In this document: positions 22,186 through 41,569 of the stretch, in pieces
Layout of the letters: the number at the start of each line of letters is the position of its first letter
Position numbering within the stretch: the first letter of the stretch is position 1
Origin: a virus
Lineage: Duplodnaviria; Heunggongvirae; Uroviricota; Caudoviricetes
Virus record (IMG/VR): IMGVR_UViG_2537561991_000019
Location: 1 to 42,125 of that record
DNA length: 42,125 nucleotides
Strand: one strand, 5' to 3'
Notes under the pieces: generated by a model
What the model was told of the DNA's origin: nothing
The model's input: only the letters and a program-made list of their open reading frames with translations
The model's database searches: none
Position numbers and translations under genes: made by a program

Positions 22186-23238
22186 TTATTTCCCCACCAG
22201 TTCACTTACCTCTTTCACCGTCTGATTAAACCGCTCTGACTCAAGTTCAACACCTAACGCCCGACGCCCCAGCGCCATTGCTGCTTTTATTGTGGAACCG
22301 GATCCCATAAAGAAATCAGCAACCAGATCACCAGGGCGACTACTGGCATTGATTATTTGCCGGAGCATATCCGCCGGTTTCTCGCACGGATGTTTACCCG
22401 GGTAGAACTGAACGGGTTTATGCGTCCAGACATCGGTATAAGGCACGGAGACTGATACGGAGAAATAGCGCCGGAGAGATTTAAACTCATCCAGCAATTC
22501 AGAATATTTGCGATTCAGTGAATCATAAGATGCCACCAGCTGGTGGTGTGGTTGTTCCAGTTGTTGTTCCTGAAACTTCTCTGCCGCTATACGGGAAAAC
22601 AGTGCCTGTAACTTCCGATAGTCAGCCTCATTCGGCAACTGCCACTGACTGGCACCAAACCAGTGGGAAACCATATTTTTCTTACCTGTGGCTTCGGCAA
22701 TTTGTTTTGCCGTTATACCCAGTTCGGCACGAGCATCCCTGAAATACGATATCAGCGGTGCCATTATGTGCTGTTTGAGTTCCCTTTCTTTTGCTGCATA
22801 GCCGTCACTTTTGCCGCGATATGGCCCCTGGTAATGTTCAGCAAACAGAACGCGCTCTGTGGCAGGAAAATATGCGCGCAGACTTTCTTTATTACACCCA
22901 TTCCAACGTCCGGACGGCTTCGCCCAGATGATATGGTTAAGCACGTTGAAACGTTCACGCATCATGATCTCAATATCAGATGCCAGGCGATGCCCACAGA
23001 ACAGATAAAGGCTTCCGGCAGGTTTTAACACCCGCCAGAACTGGGCCAGACAGTGGTCCAGCCACTTAAGGTAATCTTCGTCCCCTTTCCACTGATTGTC
23101 CCAACCGTTGGGTTTCACCTTGAAGTACGGCGGATCGGTAACAATCAGGTCAATGGAATCATCAGGCAGGGACTGAATAAAATGCAGGCAATCAGCGTTG
23201 ATTAAATCAACACTGTTTATTTTTACAGTATTTTTCAT
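22186..23238 (-). CDS. DNA methyltransferase, beta-class N6-adenine/N4-cytosine type
   Basis: DPPY motif (VTDPPYF) near the N-terminus and an AdoMet-binding FxGSGST motif (FFMGSGST) near the C-terminus. No Shine-Dalgarno before the only available ATG. Confidence 0.8.
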   Translation of the reverse strand: MKNTVKINSVDLINADCLHFIQSLPDDSIDLIVTDPPYFKVKPNGWDNQWKGDEDYLKWLDHCLAQFWRVLKPAGSLYLFCGHRLASDIEIMMRERFNVLNHIIWAKPSGRWNGCNKESLRAYFPATERVLFAEHYQGPYRGKSDGYAAKERELKQHIMAPLISYFRDARAELGITAKQIAEATGKKNMVSHWFGASQWQLPNEADYRKLQALFSRIAAEKFQEQQLEQPHHQLVASYDSLNRKYSELLDEFKSLRRYFSVSVSVPYTDVWTHKPVQFYPGKHPCEKPADMLRQIINASSRPGDLVADFFMGSGSTIKAAMALGRRALGVELESERFNQTVKEVSELVGK

Positions 23239-23388
23239 GGATCAGTAAGCGTAACTCTGGTAGGCTCACTCTGCTTTTGCGCTAAAGCAGTGGGCCGTGG
23301 TTCGCTTGTGACCAGTAAGCATGAGCGAATGGCTGGCAGGTGCTACCAACACCCACCAGCCGCCCATTTTCACAGCAGGAAACCGCCA

Positions 23389-23616
23389 TTACTGGCAGCG
23401 TCTGAATTTATTCCCGTACCCGCCGTTATCCTTCGCCAGCCCCGCCAGAACTAACTGAGTCAGTATTAACTGGCACCGGGCTTCGCTTACTCCGGTAGTT
23501 CTCGTCATCATGCGTGGCGTTACCCACTTGTCAGCAGGTAAGAAATGAAGGACTGCGGCGGCGGTTTCTGTCATATCTTGCTGTTTTAGCATGTCTTTTT
23601 CCCTTCTGGTTAACAT
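23389..23616 (-). CDS. Small hypothetical protein
   Basis: 75-aa ORF (or shorter from an internal Met with AGGG upstream) between the upstream terminator and the methyltransferase gene. Confidence 0.3.
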   Translation of the reverse strand: MLTRREKDMLKQQDMTETAAAVLHFLPADKWVTPRMMTRTTGVSEARCQLILTQLVLAGLAKDNGGYGNKFRRCQ

Positions 23617-23868: not shown

Positions 23869-24486
23869 TCAATTATCTTCCAGGCCGGATGCTATCAACG
23901 AAAGCCTCTCAAAAAACGCTGTAGCAGCCTTGTCCAAAGTTGAATAAGTACTGTATTCTCCGTGTTCGGGACCAACCACTACCCATGGTCGTCTTTTTGG
24001 GATTCGGGATTTCTCAGAAATCACTGTTCCAGATATACCAATATCAATTGTTACACCTGTTATTATTTTCTCTTCATCTCTTTCCCTGAACTCAATTGCC
24101 ATAAATGCCGTTTTTTTTCGTTTCCCGTTTTTAAAAAAATCAAATAAAGCAAAGCGATGCTCATTAAAATCAACACCCCATCGTCCTTCAGGATAAAGGG
24201 CATGAAAGTTGTCATTTACGCTCTGCATCGTCTCATAAGCTTTAACTTCTAAATCTCCATAATGCATAGATACCGCGCAGGAGTCACTGGGTAACTGTAT
24301 TTTCCCAAGATTGAAAACCTTTACTGCTCCAGAACTATGGCATCTTGCCCGCAACTTATCCCCATTTATACTAATCGGAGAAATATTCCTTAATGTTCCG
24401 GGCTGGCTCCCTCCTAAGTAAACGACTGTTAAAGATTGCTTATTTTCAATTGCATCAACTAATACATGCTCTACATTTTTATCCAT
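23869..24486 (-). CDS. Uncharacterised protein (~205 aa) in AT-rich cargo DNA between Q and the lysis genes
   Basis: Start at MDKNVEHVLVD preceded by GGGAGG; region visibly more AT-rich than the flanks; followed by its own terminator. No recognisable catalytic motif. Confidence 0.6.
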   Translation of the reverse strand: MDKNVEHVLVDAIENKQSLTVVYLGGSQPGTLRNISPISINGDKLRARCHSSGAVKVFNLGKIQLPSDSCAVSMHYGDLEVKAYETMQSVNDNFHALYPEGRWGVDFNEHRFALFDFFKNGKRKKTAFMAIEFRERDEEKIITGVTIDIGISGTVISEKSRIPKRRPWVVVGPEHGEYSTYSTLDKAATAFFERLSLIASGLEDN

Positions 24487-24561
24487 AATAACCTCCCAAT
24501 GAACAGGTATCATCAGGAGGTTATTATAAAATATGATTATTTACTTTGATTGAATTTATTA

Positions 24562-26776: not shown

Positions 26777-27166
26777 TCAGGCGGCTGCACCCGCCGTTTT
26801 CTCGTACTTACTGATAGTGATCTCGACCTTCCCTTTCGGGATAACCGGTCCCCACTCCACCAGCATTCTTTTCACCTGTCTGTCGTCTTCCCACACACCC
26901 GCGTGGGTCAGGGCGTCAAACAGCGCCTTGTTATAGTTGTCCAGATCACGGATCCGGTTATCCGGCGGAAACAACACGATCTCCACTGAAGCAGGTGCCG
27001 ACGTTGGTTTCGGCAGACGACGTAACTGCTCAACTATTGCTGCGCACGCCGCGCTCTGAAATTTTCGCCCCGCCTCGCTTATCAGGCTCTTACCAGCAAA
27101 TGCCCCTTTGTTGGGGTGTCGCCAGTACGTGTTCACACTGGGCGGGAAAGGAAGGATCAACTTCAT
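26777..27166 (-). CDS. rusA: Holliday junction resolvase RusA
   Basis: 129 aa with the RusA pattern ...DNRIRDLDNYNKALFDALTHAGVWEDDRQV... Confidence 0.85.
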   Translation of the reverse strand: MKLILPFPPSVNTYWRHPNKGAFAGKSLISEAGRKFQSAACAAIVEQLRRLPKPTSAPASVEIVLFPPDNRIRDLDNYNKALFDALTHAGVWEDDRQVKRMLVEWGPVIPKGKVEITISKYEKTAGAAA

Positions 27167-27489
27167 ACTTTCAGGCCCCTCTCATGTAACCAGTGGGCTG
27201 CACGCAACCTGGCGCTCTCCTCACCGGCAAGCAGTGCGCGGATGATACCGACCGCTTCGCTGTCGTCGTCCTTCACTGCGGTATGAAGCGTGATCCCCCG
27301 GGCCACGCCACGCTTTATCGTGATGACGCCTTTTTTCTCCAGTGCGCGAAGATGCTCCACCGCTGCATTCACTGAACGGTATCCCAGCATGGTTGCCACC
27401 TCCTGATTGGTTGGCGGAAAGCCACGCTCTTGCTGGTAAGAAATCAGCATATCCAGCACCTGCTGCTGGCATTGAGTTAACGTCGTCAT
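27163..27489 (-). CDS. LexA-like winged-helix DNA-binding domain protein lacking the S24 peptidase domain
   Basis: 108 aa; LTQCQQQVLDMLISYQQERGFPPTNQEVATMLGYRSVNAAVEHLRALEKKGVITIKRGVARGITL aligns with the LexA N-terminal domain; no C-terminal Ser-Lys peptidase region. Confidence 0.6.
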   Translation of the reverse strand: MTTLTQCQQQVLDMLISYQQERGFPPTNQEVATMLGYRSVNAAVEHLRALEKKGVITIKRGVARGITLHTAVKDDDSEAVGIIRALLAGEESARLRAAHWLHERGLKV

Positions 27490-28139
27490 GCCGCCATCTC
27501 CCTGACAAGTTTTTCTGCCTGCTGGCGAACCTGCGCCAGAAACGCCTCACCACATGCCTCAAGTTCATCGCGCCCGATGTAGCTGATTGCCGGTCCCTTC
27601 CAGGTCTTGTCGAAAACAGCAATAGCACCAGCGAAGAAAGCGCCTGTCGGCACCTGCTTCTCGTCCTTCGGGATAAACCAGGCTGGCAGTTCAAAACCAA
27701 TACGCCCGCGAATAAAAGCAATATGGTCTGCATCTTCCGGCCACCACACTTCGCTGGTGGCAGCTTTGATCAGGAAAACATAGCGCCCGCCTTTATCACG
27801 CATAGCACTGGCATGTTTCATGATGTAACGCATGCCGGTGATGTATTGCCCCTCATGCTGACTGGCGCGGCTGTACGGGGGATTACCAAAGGCAGCACCT
27901 TTAAGCTCCGCAAGACGTTCTGACCAGTCATGCGCCAGCGCGTTGTCTTCCGCAGTGTAATAAGCGGCACATTTGGCGTTATCACCATCAGTGAACAGAT
28001 CCAGAACAAACGGGCCAAACAGGGTGTTAATTCCCCAGAAAATGTTGTCCGGCGTGCGCCACTGATCGCCCACTTCCTTCAGTTCATGGGCTGGTTTGTT
28101 CCGCAGTTCCACCAGCGCCTGGCAATATTTATTACTCAT
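27486..28139 (-). CDS. Phage Dam-family N6-adenine DNA methyltransferase
   Basis: Start at MSNKYCQALVEL (TAATG overlap with the upstream stop); NPPY motif (AFGNPPYS). Confidence 0.75.
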   Translation of the reverse strand: MSNKYCQALVELRNKPAHELKEVGDQWRTPDNIFWGINTLFGPFVLDLFTDGDNAKCAAYYTAEDNALAHDWSERLAELKGAAFGNPPYSRASQHEGQYITGMRYIMKHASAMRDKGGRYVFLIKAATSEVWWPEDADHIAFIRGRIGFELPAWFIPKDEKQVPTGAFFAGAIAVFDKTWKGPAISYIGRDELEACGEAFLAQVRQQAEKLVREMAA

Positions 28140-28633
28140 TAAGCCCCCACGTAATTCCCTGATAGATACCACTCTTCACCTGATGCAGCGCGCTTGCTGC
28201 TTTTCCGTAAGCACCGCTCACGACGCGCCAGAAAATTGTTTCGTTCTGGCTGGGAGTGGCTTTCACGGAATGCCGCCATCCACACGGTTGCAGCACGACG
28301 GTATAAGCCCCTTGACTCCAGTTCTTCAGCCTGGCGGGTCAGGCACAAAATCACCCGGGGATCGTTAGTGCCGACATAGAAATTGCGCACAGGTCTGGTT
28401 TCACGAACTGGTTGTGGTTCCGGCTCCTGCGCTCTCTCAGTCAGGCGTGGGAAATGTCTGCGTGTATCTCCTTCACAACGGTGAGCCACACGCCCACTCT
28501 GACGTAACTTGCTTGCAGACTGCAGAACGCGCTGCCGTGAGTAACCTGCAAAAGCATCCGCAATGTCTCCGGAAGTACACCCCGGATGGGCTTCAATGAA
28601 TTTCTGAACTTCATTCAAAAGACTCATGATCAC
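28139..28633 (-). CDS. Hypothetical protein, possibly with a PerC-like regulator C-terminal region
   Basis: 164 aa; ...GLYRRAATVWMAAF... recalls PerC-family regulators (weak); translationally coupled to flanking genes. Confidence 0.35.
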   Translation of the reverse strand: MIMSLLNEVQKFIEAHPGCTSGDIADAFAGYSRQRVLQSASKLRQSGRVAHRCEGDTRRHFPRLTERAQEPEPQPVRETRPVRNFYVGTNDPRVILCLTRQAEELESRGLYRRAATVWMAAFRESHSQPERNNFLARRERCLRKSSKRAASGEEWYLSGNYVGA

Positions 28634-29448
28634 CCCCTGAATCCTACCGGGATCTGGCTGTAGTCCACATTGTCGTAACTGGCTTTGAAGTACGGGTCCT
28701 CGCGTCTGGCTGCAGATACCGCAGGAACTTCCCAGGATTCTTCGAAATGACGATCCGGACCAAAGAACGTGACAGCCTGTTTCACAAATTGTGTGCCGCT
28801 GTTACCCATCGCAGATACCCAGCCCGCGTAGCGTTTCACACCTTCCAGCATGGTTTCGGGGTTTACCCCCTCATTCAAACGGGCTTTCCAGGCTTTGAAG
28901 GCTGCAGATTTTGAATTGCCACCAGCACGTTTGGGATATACCAGCCATGCCTGCTCAAACTCCGGAGAGTATTCCGGTCGGTTTGAACGAACTCGCACAG
29001 ACTCATCAGCAGATGCACCAACAGCTATTGGTTCATTGACTGGTTCTTTGACTGGTTCAAAAGAGTGACTGGTTCTGGGTGAATCTCCTGCACTACCCCC
29101 TGGTGCAACTCCTGCACTACCTGGTGAATTTGCTGCACCAGATAGTGAATTATTTGCACTACCCCCTAGTGAATCTCCTGCACCATCCAGATGAAGGAGA
29201 TAGATATTACTTGAGTTACCTTTTTCACCTTTCCGGGTGACTTTTTTTACCAGCCCGGACTCACAAAGGGCCGCAATATGATTCATCACAGAACGTTTGC
29301 TAATCTCGCACTGGTCAGCAATATGCTGGTAGCTGGGCCAGCACTCCCCCTGATCGCTGGCATTATCAGCCAGCTTGATCAGAACCAGTTTTCGCAATGG
29401 ATTTCCCACTCGAATTTTCATCGCTTTAACCATCAGCTCCATACTCAT
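28630..29448 (-). CDS. Replication initiator (lambda O-like) with internal origin iterons
   Basis: N-terminal HTH/winged-helix region; Gly/Ser/Ala-rich linker encoded by the repeat array; conserved C-terminal domain. Confidence 0.65.
   Translation of the reverse strand: MSMELMVKAMKIRVGNPLRKLVLIKLADNASDQGECWPSYQHIADQCEISKRSVMNHIAALCESGLVKKVTRKGEKGNSSNIYLLHLDGAGDSLGGSANNSLSGAANSPGSAGVAPGGSAGDSPRTSHSFEPVKEPVNEPIAVGASADESVRVRSNRPEYSPEFEQAWLVYPKRAGGNSKSAAFKAWKARLNEGVNPETMLEGVKRYAGWVSAMGNSGTQFVKQAVTFFGPDRHFEESWEVPAVSAARREDPYFKASYDNVDYSQIPVGFRG
29078..29188. repeat. Candidate replication-origin iterons: about five ~21-23 bp direct repeats inside the O-like gene
   Basis: Plus-strand units ggtgaatctcctgcactaccccc / tggtgcaactcctgcactacc / tggtgaatttgctgcaccag / atagtgaattatttgcactaccccc / tagtgaatctcctgcaccatcc, followed by AT-rich sequence. 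Confidence 0.55.
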
Positions 29449-29669
29449 GCAGCACCTCCGAGATGCTTCATGTTTTTTCCGGAGCGAAAGGCTATAAGCG
29501 GCATACTGACGCGGTAATTACGGCCCAGCGGTTCACAAACCACCTTCTGACATTCACGGTCAACCAGGCTAACACGTAGAACATGCCCTGCAGGCGTGGT
29601 GTACCACTGACCCGGACGAGGACAACGGAAAGTCTGATTGGTAAAACGTTTGAAAATATTCCGGATCAT
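29445..29669 (-). CDS. Small hypothetical protein
   Basis: 74-aa ORF with ATGA-type overlaps to both neighbours. Confidence 0.3.
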   Translation of the reverse strand: MIRNIFKRFTNQTFRCPRPGQWYTTPAGHVLRVSLVDRECQKVVCEPLGRNYRVSMPLIAFRSGKNMKHLGGAA

Positions 29670-30109
29670 TTGCGCCCCCTTACCTCTGAAGAGTTCAGCG
29701 ACGAATGAATAAGACGGGCAAGAAATGCCGCATCGTTAATTCGGTCATACAGACTTACAGCCAGCGGTGATTCAGCTTTTTCCAGCATGGGATAAAGCTG
29801 CTGCAACCAGACCTGATGAATTGATGAAATGTAGGAATAGAGAACGCTGGCGTTATGTGCAACGTCGCTCGGTACAGAGGGCTTTGAAAGCTGTTTCTCC
29901 ATCTGGTTAAAGGCATTGATGTATGCCTCTTTGAACTGGGCAGCACGTTTACCCGTGAAACCCATAGCAAGAAACGCAAAGCCATCGCGGGTTATTTGAT
30001 AGCAAGGTAGTTTGCGAGTACCGCCGTTGGGCTGGCGTACCAAAATTGATGTCTCCGCAAAATTGCGGGCACAAAACTCTGGAGAACAATCCAAAATGCG
30101 AATCTTTTT
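29666..30109 (-). pseudogene. 3' fragment of a Rha-domain regulatory gene split by the IS66 insertion
   Basis: ...YQITRDGFAFLAMGFTGKRAAQFKEAYINAFNQME... is the remembered Rha core; the reading frame rejoins in frame with the fragment at 32809-32931 when the IS and one copy of the target duplication are removed. Confidence 0.7.
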
Positions 30110-30162
30110 GTAACCGGCTCATTTAAACCGTCTGGTCTGTTTCCTCCGGCTCTACAAAAATA

Positions 30163-30840
30163 ATGTCCATCATTTTTAATGGACACTATCGTATGAAACA
30201 CCGGACCTGGATCACTGAAGCTTTACGTCTTCACTTTGAAGAACATTTACCCCGGGTTGTGGCCGGGCGTCGCCTGGGTGTACCAAAATCAACAGTTTGT
30301 AGTATGTTCGTGCGCTTTCGGAGAGCTGGCCTTTCGTGGCCTTTGCCCGCAGGCATGTCGGAGCAGGAACTTGATGCCTGCCTTTACGGACAATTTTCCA
30401 CGGTACCAGTCGTACGTCCTGAAAGCACCGTTATATCCGAAGCCCCCGTGGTAAAAAAACGTCCCCGGCGGCCCAACTTCCCTTATGAGTTTAAAATCGC
30501 CTTAGTGGAGCAGTCACTGCAGCCCGGAGCCTGTGTGGCGCAGATCGCCCGGGAAAACGGAATCAACGATAACCTGCTCTTCAACTGGCGCCATCAATAC
30601 CGGAAAGGTGGCCTGCTGCCTTCCGGAAAAAATATGCCGGCACTGCTTCCCGTGACGTTAACGCCGGAGCCGGATAATAAAATCCCGGCCCCCGCACAGG
30701 AACCAGAGCAGATAAATACACCGTCCGACAGTCTGTGTTGTGAGCTGGTTCTGCCGGCCGGAACTCTCAGGCTTAAAGGTAAACTGACGCCGGCGTTATT
30801 ACAGACACTTATCCGCGAAATAAAAGGGAGCAGCCACTGA
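30163..30840 (+). CDS. IS66-family accessory protein (orfA)
   Basis: First ORF of the element with an HTH-like segment; stop overlaps the orfB start. Confidence 0.65.
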   Translation: MSIIFNGHYRMKHRTWITEALRLHFEEHLPRVVAGRRLGVPKSTVCSMFVRFRRAGLSWPLPAGMSEQELDACLYGQFSTVPVVRPESTVISEAPVVKKRPRRPNFPYEFKIALVEQSLQPGACVAQIARENGINDNLLFNWRHQYRKGGLLPSGKNMPALLPVTLTPEPDNKIPAPAQEPEQINTPSDSLCCELVLPAGTLRLKGKLTPALLQTLIREIKGSSH

Positions 30841-31187
30841 TGATATCTCTCCCTGCAGGTTCGCGTATCTGGCTGGTTGCAGGTATCACCGATATGCGAA
30901 ATGGCTTTAACGGCCTGGCATCAAAAGTTCAGAACGTCCTGAAGGATGACCCGTTCTCCGGACACCTGTTCATCTTCCGCGGACGCCGGGGTGACCAGAT
31001 AAAAGTGTTGTGGGCTGACAGTGACGGACTGTGCCTCTTCACCAAACGCCTGGAGCGGGGCCGCTTCGTCTGGCCAGTCACCCGTGACGGCAAGGTGCAC
31101 CTTACTCCGGCTCAGTTATCCATGCTTCTTGAAGGTATCAACTGGAAGCACCCGAAACGAACGGAACGCGCTGGAATCCGCATATAA
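30840..31187 (+). CDS. IS66-family accessory protein (orfB)
   Basis: 115 aa, MISLPAGSRIWLVAGITDMRNGFNGLA..., characteristic IS66 Orf2. Confidence 0.8.
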   Translation: MISLPAGSRIWLVAGITDMRNGFNGLASKVQNVLKDDPFSGHLFIFRGRRGDQIKVLWADSDGLCLFTKRLERGRFVWPVTRDGKVHLTPAQLSMLLEGINWKHPKRTERAGIRI

Positions 31188-31206
31188 CCCGTTGTAAAGT
31201 GAGGAT

Positions 31207-32779
31207 ATGGACACCTCACTTGCTCATGAGAACGCCCGCCTGCGGGCACTGTTGCAGACGCAACAGGACACCATCCGCCAGATGGCTGAATACAACCGCC
31301 TGCTCTCACAGCGGGTGGCGGCTTATGCTTCCGAAATCAACCGGCTGAAGGCGCTGGTTGCGAAACTGCAACGTATGCAGTTCGGTAAAAGCTCAGAAAA
31401 ACTTCGTGCAAAAACCGAACGGCAGATACAGGAAGCACAGGAGCGAATCAGCGCACTTCAGGAAGAAATGGCGGAAACGCTGGGTGAGCAATATGACCCG
31501 GTACTGCCATCCGCCCTGCGCCAGTCTTCAGCCCGTAAACCGTTACCGGCCTCACTTCCCCGTGAAACCCGGGTTATCCGGCCGGAAGAGGAATGCTGTC
31601 CTGCCTGTGGTGGTGAACTCAGTTCTCTGGGATGTGATGTGTCAGAGCAACTGGAGCTTATCAGCAGCGCCTTTAAGGTTATCGAAACACAACGTCCGAA
31701 ACAGGCCTGTTGCCGGTGCGACCATATCGTGCAGGCACCAGTACCTTCAAAACCCATTGCACGCAGTTATGCCGGAGCGGGGCTTCTGGCCCATGTTGTC
31801 ACCGGGAAATATGCAGACCATCTGCCGTTATACCGCCAGTCAGAAATATACCGTCGTCAGGGAGTGGAGCTGAGCCGTGCCACACTGGGGCGCTGGACAG
31901 GTGCTGTTGCTGAACTGCTGGAGCCGCTGTATGACGTCCTGCGCCAGTATGTGCTGAATGCCCGGTAAAGTCCATGCTGATGATATCCCCGTCCCGGTCC
32001 AGGAGCCGGGCAGCGGTAAAACCCGGACAGCCCGGCTGTGGGTCTACGTCCGTGATGACCGTAACGCCGGTTCACAGATGCCCCCGGCGGTCTGGTTCGC
32101 GTACAGTCCGGACCGGAAAGGTATCCATCCACAAAATCACCTGGCCGGTTACAGCGGTGTGCTTCAGGCCGATGCTTACGGTGGTTACCGGGCGTTATAC
32201 GAATCCGGCAGAATAACGGAAGTCGCGTGTATGGCTCATGCCCGGAGAAAAATCCACGATGTGCATGCAAGAGCGCCCACCTACATCACCACGGAAGCCC
32301 TGCAGCGTATCGGTGAACTGTATGCCATCGAGGCAGAGGTCCGGGGCTGTTCAGCAGAACAGCGTCTGGCGGCAAGAAAAGCCAGAGCCGCGCCACTGAT
32401 GCAGTCACTGTATGACTGGATACAGCAACAGATGAAAACACTGTCGCGTCACTCAGATACGGCAAAAGCGTTCGCATACCTGCTGAAACAGTGGGATGCA
32501 CTGAACGTGTACTGCAGTAATGGCTGGGTGGAAATCGACAACAACATCGCAGAGAACGCCTTACGGGGAGTGGCCGTAGGCCGGAAAAACTGGATGTTCG
32601 CGGGTTCCGACAGCGGTGGTGAACATGCGGCGGTGTTGTACTCGCTGATCGGCACATGCCGTCTGAACAATGTGGAGCCAGAAAAGTGGCTGCGTTACGT
32701 CATTGAACATATCCAGGACTGGCCGGCAAACCGGGTACGCGATCTGTTGCCCTGGAAAGTTGATCTGAGCTCTCAGTAA
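31207..32779 (+). pseudogene. IS66-family transposase (orfC) interrupted by a frameshift near 31958-31968
   Basis: Two overlapping ORFs (253 aa and 273 aa) together have the length and features of one IS66 transposase (leucine-zipper-like N-terminus, CPACGGEL zinc-finger-like motif, catalytic core). Confidence 0.7.
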
Positions 32780-32808
32780 ATATCAATACGGTTCTGACGA
32801 GTCGCTTA

Positions 32809-33537
32809 CATCTTTTTCAGAACATCGTCATGACGTTTAGAGAAGAAGTCAGCAACAGCCAAAGAAGATGTAACAGCCTGACCATCAACGATGGCAATTT
32901 CAGGTTGAGAGAGGGTTGGGAGAGTAGTCATAGTGACAGCCCCGGTAGTCAGTTTTTTAGAAAACTCACCACATGGGACGCCAATCACAGAGGTGGTGAG
33001 ACGTACAGGGTTGGCGTTACCGGAGACTACCGAACCCGGCCCGACCGAAGTCGGCCCTGTACGCCCCACCATAATTTGGGCGTAGCAATGCTCATGACAC
33101 GAAAAAACCGCATGAGCGCGGTTATGCTCAGTAATCAATTTCAGGACGCCAATCCCGGCACCCGCTTTATAAGGTGCCTGAACAGTGTAACGTCCCGGAA
33201 TGGCAGAATCAATGTGCTGGTGGTCCTTCACACTCAACAAAATCACGCCTGAATTTCCACAAAGGACTAAAGCACTCATGCGGGTAGTCTTTGCGAAGAT
33301 AGATAACGCGCTGAGTTTCTGGCTCCCAACGAATAACATGGACATAAAGCCCTCTTCCATCACGAAACCAGCGGTTAAGTTCCTGCACAACTCGCCCCCC
33401 ACAGTCAGGTAAAGTTCTCTGTGGTTACTTACAGCCAGGTGATTTGGTAATCTGCATTCATGCCGTAACAACAGGTGTTCAGCGACACTGACCACCAGCT
33501 GTTGCGACAAACGGTTATTTGCCGTTAAACTGTTCAT
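32809..33537 (-). pseudogene. 5' portion of the IS-disrupted gene; its last 41 codons are the Rha-domain N-terminus
   Basis: MTTLPTLSQPEIAIVDGQAVTSSLAVADFFSKRHDDVLKK runs into the IS inverted repeat. The open frame extends upstream to an ATGA overlap with the preceding gene, so the true start is unclear. Confidence 0.5.
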
Positions 33538-34419: not shown

Positions 34420-35094
34420 ATGAAAACAGTCCATGACATCCGGCGGTCTAACGCCAGAAAACTGAGAGATGGTGTTGGCGGGAATTCTTCCTTTGCCACC
34501 ATGATTGATCGCGAGCCAACCCAGACCAGCAGGTTTATGGGAGATGGTGCTACTAAAAATATCGGTGACAGCATGGCACGGCACATCGAAAAATGTTTCG
34601 ACCTGCCTGTCGGATGGCTTGATCAAGAACACCAGACAACAAACATCACAAAAAAACCTGATGTTTCAATTACTAACAAACAAATAACGTTAGTCCCTGT
34701 CATATCATGGGTACAGGCCGGAGCATGGAAAGAAGTTGGCTATTCTGAGGTTGATTTGAGCACAGCAGAAACTTATCCCTGCCCTGTACCCTGTGGCGAA
34801 ATGACTTATATCTTGCGGGTGATTGGTGATTCAATGATTGATGAGTACCGCCCGGGAGACATGATTTTTGTTGATCCTGAAGTCCCTGCCTGCCACGGTG
34901 ACGACGTTATTGCATTGATGCACGATACAGGCGAAACCACCTTCAAGCGGTTGATAGAAGATGGAACACAGCGTTATCTCAAAGCATTAAACCCAAACTG
35001 GCCTGAGCCTTACATTAAGATTAACGGTAATTGCTCTATAATTGGTACAGTAATTTTCTCAGGAAAACCAAGAAGATACAAAATAAAGGCCTAA
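34420..35094 (+). CDS. cI: CI-type prophage repressor (N-terminal HTH, C-terminal S24 LexA-like autopeptidase domain)
   Basis: 224 aa; C-terminal RVIGDSM serine motif and an Ala-Gly candidate cleavage site (VQAGAW); divergent from cro; essentially leaderless. Confidence 0.85.
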   Translation: MKTVHDIRRSNARKLRDGVGGNSSFATMIDREPTQTSRFMGDGATKNIGDSMARHIEKCFDLPVGWLDQEHQTTNITKKPDVSITNKQITLVPVISWVQAGAWKEVGYSEVDLSTAETYPCPVPCGEMTYILRVIGDSMIDEYRPGDMIFVDPEVPACHGDDVIALMHDTGETTFKRLIEDGTQRYLKALNPNWPEPYIKINGNCSIIGTVIFSGKPRRYKIKA

Positions 35095-41112: not shown

Positions 41113-41143
41113 ACAAAAAACCCGCTTCGGCGGGTTAGTTTTC
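41113..41143. terminator. Bidirectional intrinsic terminator between the convergent operons
   Basis: CCCGC-TTCG-GCGGG flanked by AAAAAA on one side and TTAGTTTTC on the other; sits between the plus-strand gene ending at 41108 and the minus-strand gene ending at 41135. Confidence 0.6.
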
Positions 41144-41569
41144 ATCTTTATAATTCTGGGCAATTCGCGCCAGATAGCTCATCACATCATGTTTTCTTGC
41201 TTTTTCATGTGCATCGGGATACATAATAGCAATGAGTGAATATTTATTCTCATAAAGCTCACCTTGGACATACACAAGACAAGCATCATTATCAGGATCA
41301 CCTTTCTTGCAGACCCTATCCGGTTGTGGAAGTTTCTCGGGAAACTTGTTTGGCGGTAGACAAAGATGGATATGCATCAACCCAGCCCGAAAAGCACCAT
41401 AAGGCTGAGTATACGCAACGTCCCTACCGAAATAATGCGGAAGCTCACCGGTTGCTTTGTATCTCTTGAAATCATCAATGATAGAAGACTCTAGCTCCGG
41501 GAATTTGAGAAAAACTTCATCAAAAAATTCAGCTCTAGTTTCTGGATTAATAGAGACTTCTAGATGCAT
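41135..41569 (-). CDS. Hypothetical protein, possibly a YafO-family toxin
   Basis: 144 aa; several motifs (...HYFGRD...HIHL...LVYVQG...SLIAIMYPDAHEKAR...) resemble my recollection of YafO-family mRNA interferases; AT-rich locus. Memory-based and unverified. Confidence 0.3.
   Translation of the reverse strand: MHLEVSINPETRAEFFDEVFLKFPELESSIIDDFKRYKATGELPHYFGRDVAYTQPYGAFRAGLMHIHLCLPPNKFPEKLPQPDRVCKKGDPDNDACLVYVQGELYENKYSLIAIMYPDAHEKARKHDVMSYLARIAQNYKDEN

Follow-up and report, generated by a model that had tools for sequence, protein, structure and literature searches.

The virus record IMGVR_UViG_2537561991_000019 (IMG/VR; Caudoviricetes), analysed here over positions 1 to 42,125 (hereafter the window, 42,125 nucleotides (nt) long), encodes a stand-alone LexA-type DNA-binding-domain protein of 108 amino acids (aa), and this identification of the open reading frame (ORF) is confirmed by profile searches and structure prediction. 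The protein joins a winged helix with most of LexA's base-contacting residues to a helical hairpin that is family-specific, is not LexA-like and occupies the place of the S24 protease/dimerisation domain of LexA. The gene is a selectively maintained but dispensable phage cassette. We propose, at a probability of roughly 40%, that its product is a RecA-insensitive surrogate LexA repressor acting on SOS-type operators after induction. The gene and the parts of its product are located as follows, the linker and hairpin being qualified by the predicted local distance difference test (pLDDT) of an AlphaFold (AF2) model:

27163..27489, (-): LexA-like coding sequence, 108 aa, with the ATG at 27489 and the stop codon at 27163-27165
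27286..27489, (-): LexA-type winged helix-turn-helix, residues 1-68, from Pfam, AlphaFold and Foldseek
27334..27375, (-): recognition helix SVNAAVEHLRALEK, residues 39-52, from alignments and the family column profile
27268..27285, (-): flexible linker, residues 69-74, of poor conservation and low pLDDT
27166..27267, (-): two-helix hairpin region, residues 75-108, with helices at 75-87 and 93-103 and an AF2 pLDDT of about 90

The Pfam family LexA_DNA_bind (PF01726) matches residues 1-65 over its entire profile (1-65 of 65; E=2.6e-19, 69 bits against a cutoff of 23.7), and the top phmmer match in the PDB is the DNA-binding domain of Escherichia coli LexA, 1lea (E=6e-16, residues 2-70). BLASTP aligns the protein with E. 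coli LexA at 43% identity over 90 residues, the shared positions including S39, N41, A42, E45, K53 and R64-G65-I66. The AF2 model, a monomer built on 22 family sequences with a mean pLDDT of 85, places helices at residues 6-22, 28-35 and 40-52 and strands at 56-58 and 66-68; pLDDT is about 90 throughout the winged helix, and Foldseek superimposes the model on the LexA-DNA complex 3jso with a root-mean-square deviation of 1.0 Å over 68 residues, at about 50% identity. RefSeq and PHROGs already carry homology-based names for the family. The RefSeq label is 'LexA family transcriptional regulator/protein'; the DNA of the gene is 100% identical to RefSeq loci, where the protein is WP_000210189.1 ('LexA family transcriptional regulator'), and phrog_362 ('transcriptional repressor') matches from end to end (residues 1-108 against 1-106 of 106, E=9.4e-59).

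Peptidase_S24 (PF00717) finds no Pfam match in the 108-aa protein, and the same domain is clearly matched by the prophage's own cI. The NCBIfam lexA equivalog TIGR00498 reaches 70.3 bits, below its cutoff of 110.95, and covers profile positions 1-91 of 203 only. By contrast, E. coli LexA (1lea, 1jhh, 3jso) has the S24 protease/dimerisation domain, the Ser/Lys dyad and a functional cleavage loop, none of which is present in the phage protein; the phage protein further differs by a valine at position 44 and by its C-terminal helical hairpin. The initial annotation, made by a model from the letters and their translated reading frames, had described a stand-alone LexA DNA-binding domain without the S24 autopeptidase that could not be inactivated by cleavage stimulated by activated RecA (RecA*). 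The significant PF01726 match, the missing S24 match with a score below the lexA equivalog cutoff, and the absence of the parts needed for self-cleavage bear out all three statements. Its further claim, that the protein aligns along its length with the N-terminal domain of LexA, holds for residues 1 to about 70 and fails for residues 75-103, which form the separate hairpin.

LexA contacts bases through S39, N41, A42, E44 and E45 (PMC3091678). Four of these five residues are kept in the window protein—S39, N41, A42 and E45—and E44 is replaced by valine. The same pattern is visible in the family column profile (n=27): S39 and N41 are present in all 27 members and A42 in 21, while position 45 is E in 15 members and D in 5 more. 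The recognition helix of the E. coli-type proteins is nearly identical to that of LexA.

The hairpin is separated from the winged helix by a linker that is both variable and poorly modelled: in the family alignment, mean pairwise identity drops from 0.56 in the winged helix to 0.23 in the linker and is 0.42 in the tail, and pLDDT falls below 50 at residues 71-75. Within the hairpin, nearly every member has apolar residues at positions 79, 82, 83, 86, 87, 93, 97, 98, 100 and 101, and A97 and L101 are invariant. The hairpin is kept in homologues of 40-58% identity from Salmonella, Citrobacter, Cronobacter, Klebsiella, Enterobacter, Atlantibacter and Kosakonia; a Pfam scan of the tail alone returned nothing significant, only a NIL match below significance. 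Ten apolar positions in 29 residues exceed what a lone hairpin can bury, which points to an oligomerisation or docking surface. Judging from the model, the hairpin is probably an oligomerisation or docking module that replaces the C-terminal dimerisation domain of LexA.

Part of the tail retains a resemblance to LexA. Residues 79-90 (AVGIIRALLAGE) align in HMMER and BLASTP with the LexA hinge/cleavage loop LPLVGRVAAGE, AGE to AGE, which sets A88-G89 of the phage protein against A84-G85 of LexA; the alanine occurs in 14 of the 27 members and the glycine in 13. A functional cleavage site, including one used in trans, is rejected at this position because the segment is a confident predicted helix and Ala-Gly is not conserved. 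On the alignment, the AGE match may mark descent from a truncated lexA.

The LexA-like gene is embedded in a chain of overlapping genes of the order O-PerC-Dam-LexA-like-RusA:

28630-29448, (-): replication protein (HTH_36/DnaD_N) of the early-right chain, upstream of the PerC/YfdN-like gene
28139-28633, (-): PerC/YfdN-like protein of the early-right chain, between the replication gene and Dam
27486..28139, (-): Dam-family N6-adenine methyltransferase, upstream of the LexA-like gene (Pfam PF05869, E=1e-45), its start at 28139 being taken from the RefSeq annotation of an identical region
26777..27166, (-): RusA Holliday-junction resolvase, downstream of the LexA-like gene (Pfam PF05866)

The Dam stop and the LexA-like start share an ATGA, as do the LexA-like stop and the RusA start, in agreement with the translationally coupled chain between Dam and RusA that had been annotated initially; the replication, PerC/YfdN-like and Dam genes overlap each other too. 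Late control is provided by a Q antiterminator, detected in the window by Pfam scan. The setting differs from that of the E. coli host lexA, which has dinF next to it; the phage gene, in the nin region, does not.

Of 5,426 complete E. coli genomes, 2,233 (41%) contain the DNA of the gene, with up to four copies per genome, and it also occurs in 63 phage records, among them SfV (orf42), SfII, SfIV, cdtI, mEp460, Stx2c, Stx2a_1447/WGPS2, Stx2k and 1720a-02. Against alleles of 85% identity, the ratio of nonsynonymous to synonymous substitution rates (dN/dS) is 0.10-0.13, showing purifying selection, and dN is 2-5 times as high as in the neighbouring RusA gene. Faster divergence is also apparent in more distant prophages, where the LexA-like protein is 44-52% identical and Dam, RusA and DUF968 are 64-82% identical. 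In 79 viral contigs sampled for a RusA at least 98% identical to that of the window, the gene directly abuts rusA in 73, and a clean Dam-RusA junction without the LexA-like cassette is found in the other six (L118, L119, L127, L151, L154 and L156). These counts of occupied and clean junctions mark the gene as a discrete accessory cassette. In the nin region of lambdoid prophages, relatives down to 44% identity occupy the same slot, immediately before rusA, DUF968 and Q, with Dam optional, and the length of the protein and both of its modules are kept down to 40% identity, in Escherichia and in the seven genera named above for the hairpin. A profile search of genome contigs yields mostly host lexA; family members are found there only at Atlantibacter and Kosakonia loci. 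An apparently gene-free gap upstream of the LexA-like gene in contig L096 is rejected as a regulatory region, as it contains an uncalled PerC-like gene. Many distant matches (P0128, P0135 and about 15 others) carry two tandem LexA_DNA_bind domains per chain and no S24 domain; from its domain content, this architecture looks like another route to a 'dimeric' non-cleavable LexA-type binder.

No functional study of the E. coli LexA-like family turned up in full-text literature searches. A 'bully phage' preprint attributes the interference exerted by the gene-carrying phage 1720a-02 to Cro and does not discuss the phage's LexA-like gene. This analysis adds only a little: a hairpin conserved across the family, the retention of an SOS-type reading head, the behaviour of the gene as a cassette beside rusA, and an operon with an SOS box and dinI in a long subfamily of the family.

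A scan for LexA boxes, which the initial annotation had proposed as a check, was run on the prophage window with a position weight matrix (PWM); as a positive control, the matrix recovers both known operators of host lexA in contig L002. It returns a single canonical box, within the start of a late-region gene:

23211..23230, strand not assigned (.): sole canonical SOS (LexA) box of the window, CACTGTTTATTTTTACAGTA, with a PWM score of 22.9
22186-23238, (-): late-region N6_N4 DNA methylase, whose codons 3-9 overlap the box

None of 200 simulated windows reached the score of 22.9. The box is conserved in methylases of 68-87% DNA identity from phages of Citrobacter (phiNP), E. coli, Morganella and Yersinia, with phiP27 and Stx2a_1447 also among the carriers, and has the CTGT and ACAG/CCAG cores intact, including two wobble positions. 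Several of these phages are absent from the phage records that the LexA-like protein matches, which indicates that the methylase box is primarily a host-LexA site. On its sequence, 23211-23230 is a candidate phage-borne target of both host LexA and the LexA-like protein. We found no paper on LexA control of the late-region methylase. An imperfect hairpin, GGCCCACTGCTTT...AAAGCAGAGTGAGCC, lies at window positions 23263-23296, about 30-60 nt upstream of the methylase ATG, and its stem seems to co-vary between phages.

Strong boxes recur among relatives. Every complete or near-complete gene-carrying phage that was scanned (SfV, SfII, SfIV, phiSTEC1575 and PhiR40_1) contains one or more boxes with a score of at least 22, and strong boxes are placed just downstream of the LexA-like gene in SfIV and before dinI-like and other morons. 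A near-perfect SOS box (25.8-27.2) is also located inside the 693-nt Xre/S24 cI gene of one lambdoid immunity type, about 210 nt from its start, in PhiR40_1 (L001:25226), SfII (L106:29167), the Stx2k phage phiSTEC1575 (L108:7725) and L097:206. The window cI (34420-35094) belongs to a different type and contains no SOS box.

An association with SOS boxes is also seen in a subfamily of longer proteins (130-135 aa), whose genes belong to operons of the form [sigma-70 promoter overlapped by canonical SOS box]-(dinI)-phrog_1813-LexA-like-phrog_1212-(RusA)-DUF968-Q-like:

L013, 4520-7413: Enterobacter long-form operon, box score 20.6
L102/L103, L102 3530-6584: long-form operon of a JGI/Logan lineage, box score 24.3
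L099-L101, 3385-6243: Klebsiella long-form operon, box score 27.0, the box directly before a dinI homologue

The long-subfamily operon links the family to SOS circuitry by a route other than homology. The placement of a late antiterminator behind an SOS box suggests, as far as gene order can tell, SOS-direct control of late genes in Klebsiella and Enterobacter prophages. In sharing an SOS-box-headed operon with a dinI homologue, the Klebsiella long form resembles prophage DinI-type SOS modulators; DinI targets RecA filaments, whereas the LexA-like protein is a predicted DNA binder. Gifsy phages reportedly carry LexA-controlled operons of dinI and antirepressor genes. The window itself contains no dinI.

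A consensus scan of the coding strand upstream of the LexA-like gene, from 27490 to 29700, finds no sigma-70-like promoter, so the gene is probably transcribed from pR once the prophage has been induced or a cell infected. The internal dam promoter annotated in SfV is rejected: its hexamers are weak (TTGCGC/TACGGA), and the corresponding -35 in the window reads TGGCGC. An element of the insertion sequence family IS66, approximately 2.7 kb in length (about 30100-32800), is inserted in antisense orientation inside an Ash/Rha gene, where it separates pR from the replication and nin genes; related loci have an intact Ash-Rha:

30163-30840: IS66 tnpA (HTH_Tnp_1)
30840-31187: IS66 tnpB (TnpB_IS66)
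31207-31968 and 31958-32779: IS66 tnpC, split (DDE_Tnp_IS66)
32806-33537: Ash part of the interrupted Ash/Rha gene
29666-30094: Rha part of the interrupted Ash/Rha gene

Occupation of SOS boxes, raised in the initial annotation, is plausible given the retained contact residues and the boxes of this and related prophages. The surrogate-repressor reading combines these observations as follows. The LexA-like protein would appear from the early-right transcript after induction or infection, at the time when host LexA is being destroyed, and without an S24 domain it would not respond to RecA*. The tail hairpin would hold a dimer together, and the dimer would read CTGT-type half-sites, hence SOS boxes; this is the most likely half-site given that S39, N41, A42 and E45 of LexA are kept. 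The non-cleavable surrogate would then re-close SOS-box promoters: those of the host SOS regulon, those under LexA control in co-resident elements, and those of phage genes with an SOS box, for example the late methylase. The nearest functional analogues are the N-terminal fragment of LexA (residues 1-84) and the LexA(Ind-) mutants, in which RecA* likewise cannot remove the LexA head. The fragment retains weak operator binding, is monomeric and is cleared by ClpXP, and with Ind- alleles the SOS response cannot be induced. These analogues are a host-gene product or its mutants, whereas the phage protein is encoded by a separately evolving gene, has its own conserved tail and ends in -GLKV. A more elaborate version of the proposal is somewhat more tentative: a surrogate made only after LexA cleavage and dimerised by the novel hairpin might silence the host SOS regulon together with the LexA-controlled antirepressors, colicin/lysis genes and morons of competitors, and the long form, placed behind an SOS box of its own with dinI and upstream of Q, might serve as an SOS-triggered, RecA-insensitive negative-feedback timer on late-gene commitment.

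Several observations weigh against the protein being a surrogate LexA repressor. Position 44, acidic in LexA, is never acidic across the 27 family members, and the recognition helix is remodelled in some subfamilies (SVNTIAGH in Citrobacter, SSNAVLLH in Klebsiella); since the host SOS box is invariant, this variation implies that SOS-box reading is not a property of the whole family. No SOS box lies within 10 kb of the gene at 35 of 73 related gene-carrying loci, and the gene and the SOS-box methylase are not obligatorily linked, as each occurs without the other. The PWM used throughout was built from 20 E. coli boxes. Finally, the IS66 element between pR and the gene makes expression in this particular prophage uncertain: transcription from pR may be impaired although the reading frame is intact, and the prophage may be defective.

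The main rival holds that the protein is a phage-specific transcription factor with an operator of its own, acting as a repressor or as an activator; we consider it possible, if somewhat doubtful. A truncated LexA homologue that activates a phage promoter is known: gp6 of GIL01, a tectivirus of Bacillus thuringiensis, activates the late promoter P3 (PMC6182141). Like the protein described here, gp6 is a phage-encoded LexA DNA-binding domain without the cleavage domain, and it is expressed from an early operon after SOS induction. The replacement of E44 by valine, the variation of helix 3 between subfamilies, the absence of a nearby SOS box at nearly half of the loci, and an evolution fast in comparison with the neighbouring genes, resembling that of specificity-diversifying regulators, would all suit a private operator. 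Nevertheless, the recognition helix of E. coli-type members barely departs from that of LexA, whereas gp6 recognises GaCACAnnTGTGaC via K38 and activates transcription; gp6 is also only 66 aa long and has no helical tail, as opposed to 108 aa with a hairpin. BLASTP of gp6 against the window protein gives no alignment with E<=100, a lack of detectable relationship which argues against a gp6-like role and for independent captures in different host lineages. Q moreover already supplies late activation in these phages. A scan for non-SOS operators, covering CTGT-Nx-ACAG and ACAG-Nx-CTGT with x=0-20 and compared with Markov simulations, yields no candidate: nothing usable emerges beyond spacings N8 and N10, with three matches each.

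The position of the gene invites another explanation, that the protein is a DNA-binding accessory of the recombination module formed by RusA and the DUF968 HNH nuclease, for instance in targeting or modulating junction resolution, and not a transcription factor. RuvAB hinders RusA, and in a variant of this idea the protein would keep the LexA-regulated ruvAB shut on behalf of RusA. The gene stands immediately upstream of rusA, usually with the 4-nt overlap, in relatives of 44-100% identity, it accompanies 73 of the 79 close RusA alleles, and DUF968 is always nearby. There is even a fusion protein, P0153 (L104 2576-4723; 240 aa), that joins a LexA-like winged helix to a DUF968/HNH C-terminal domain. 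It is, though, a single fusion from a prophage with a split recA (RecA_N + RecA_C) upstream, and could be either a true domain swap or the artefact of a deletion. The nin region keeps its gene order in any case, the six clean Dam-RusA junctions do without the gene, Klebsiella loci carry it without RusA, and SfIV has no annotated RusA after it; an accessory role is accordingly unlikely. Far less credible still is a poison of host LexA: the initial annotation had raised a dominant-negative effect through mixed dimers, to which a decoy for RecA* may be added. Homology to LexA is what speaks for either. The dimer interface and the RecA*-binding surface of LexA lie in its C-terminal S24 domain (structures 1jhh, 3jso and 8trg), and with this domain missing from the phage protein the subunit-mixing proposal loses its footing; the decoy fares no better, its LLAGEE stretch being part of a predicted helix in which Ala-Gly is not conserved. 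We regard it as very improbable, too, that the gene is a decaying, functionless remnant of a captured lexA. Its dispensability at six of the 79 loci and the many frameshifted or fused database entries would fit such a remnant, but the dN/dS values, the conservation of length and of both modules, and the presence in 41% of complete E. coli genomes do not.

If the protein does bind SOS boxes, induced prophages would actively rewrite the DNA-damage response of their host, with a bearing on Shiga toxin (Stx) release under antibiotics, on prophage competition in enterohaemorrhagic E. coli, on SOS mutagenesis, and on SOS reporters used in lysogens. Carriers of the gene include Stx2a-, Stx2c- and Stx2k-converting phages, the Shigella serotype-converting phages SfII, SfIV and SfV, and a cdt phage; were the more elaborate version of the surrogate reading true, the toxin output of Stx phages after SOS-inducing antibiotics would be directly modulated. 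A private operator would instead mean that the nin region, much studied as it is, has a further layer of regulation yet to be characterised. The naturally gene-free Dam-RusA variants are ready-made comparison strains.

Some further genes of the window lie outside the early-right chain. A 214-aa ORF (23869-24513, (-)) with a weak match to the WYL domain (E=0.0096) is situated between Q and the late genes, where related phages differ, and an ORF of about 67 aa (23390-23600, (-)) precedes the methylase gene and has a homologue in phiSTEC1575 annotated as TrmB-family. The two ORFs resemble morons or late-region regulators. At the prophage end, a YafO-family type II toxin gene (41135-41569, (-); Pfam E=1.9e-21) is adjoined by a 179-aa ORF with no Pfam match, and the corresponding pair is annotated as YafO/YafM in PhiR40_1.

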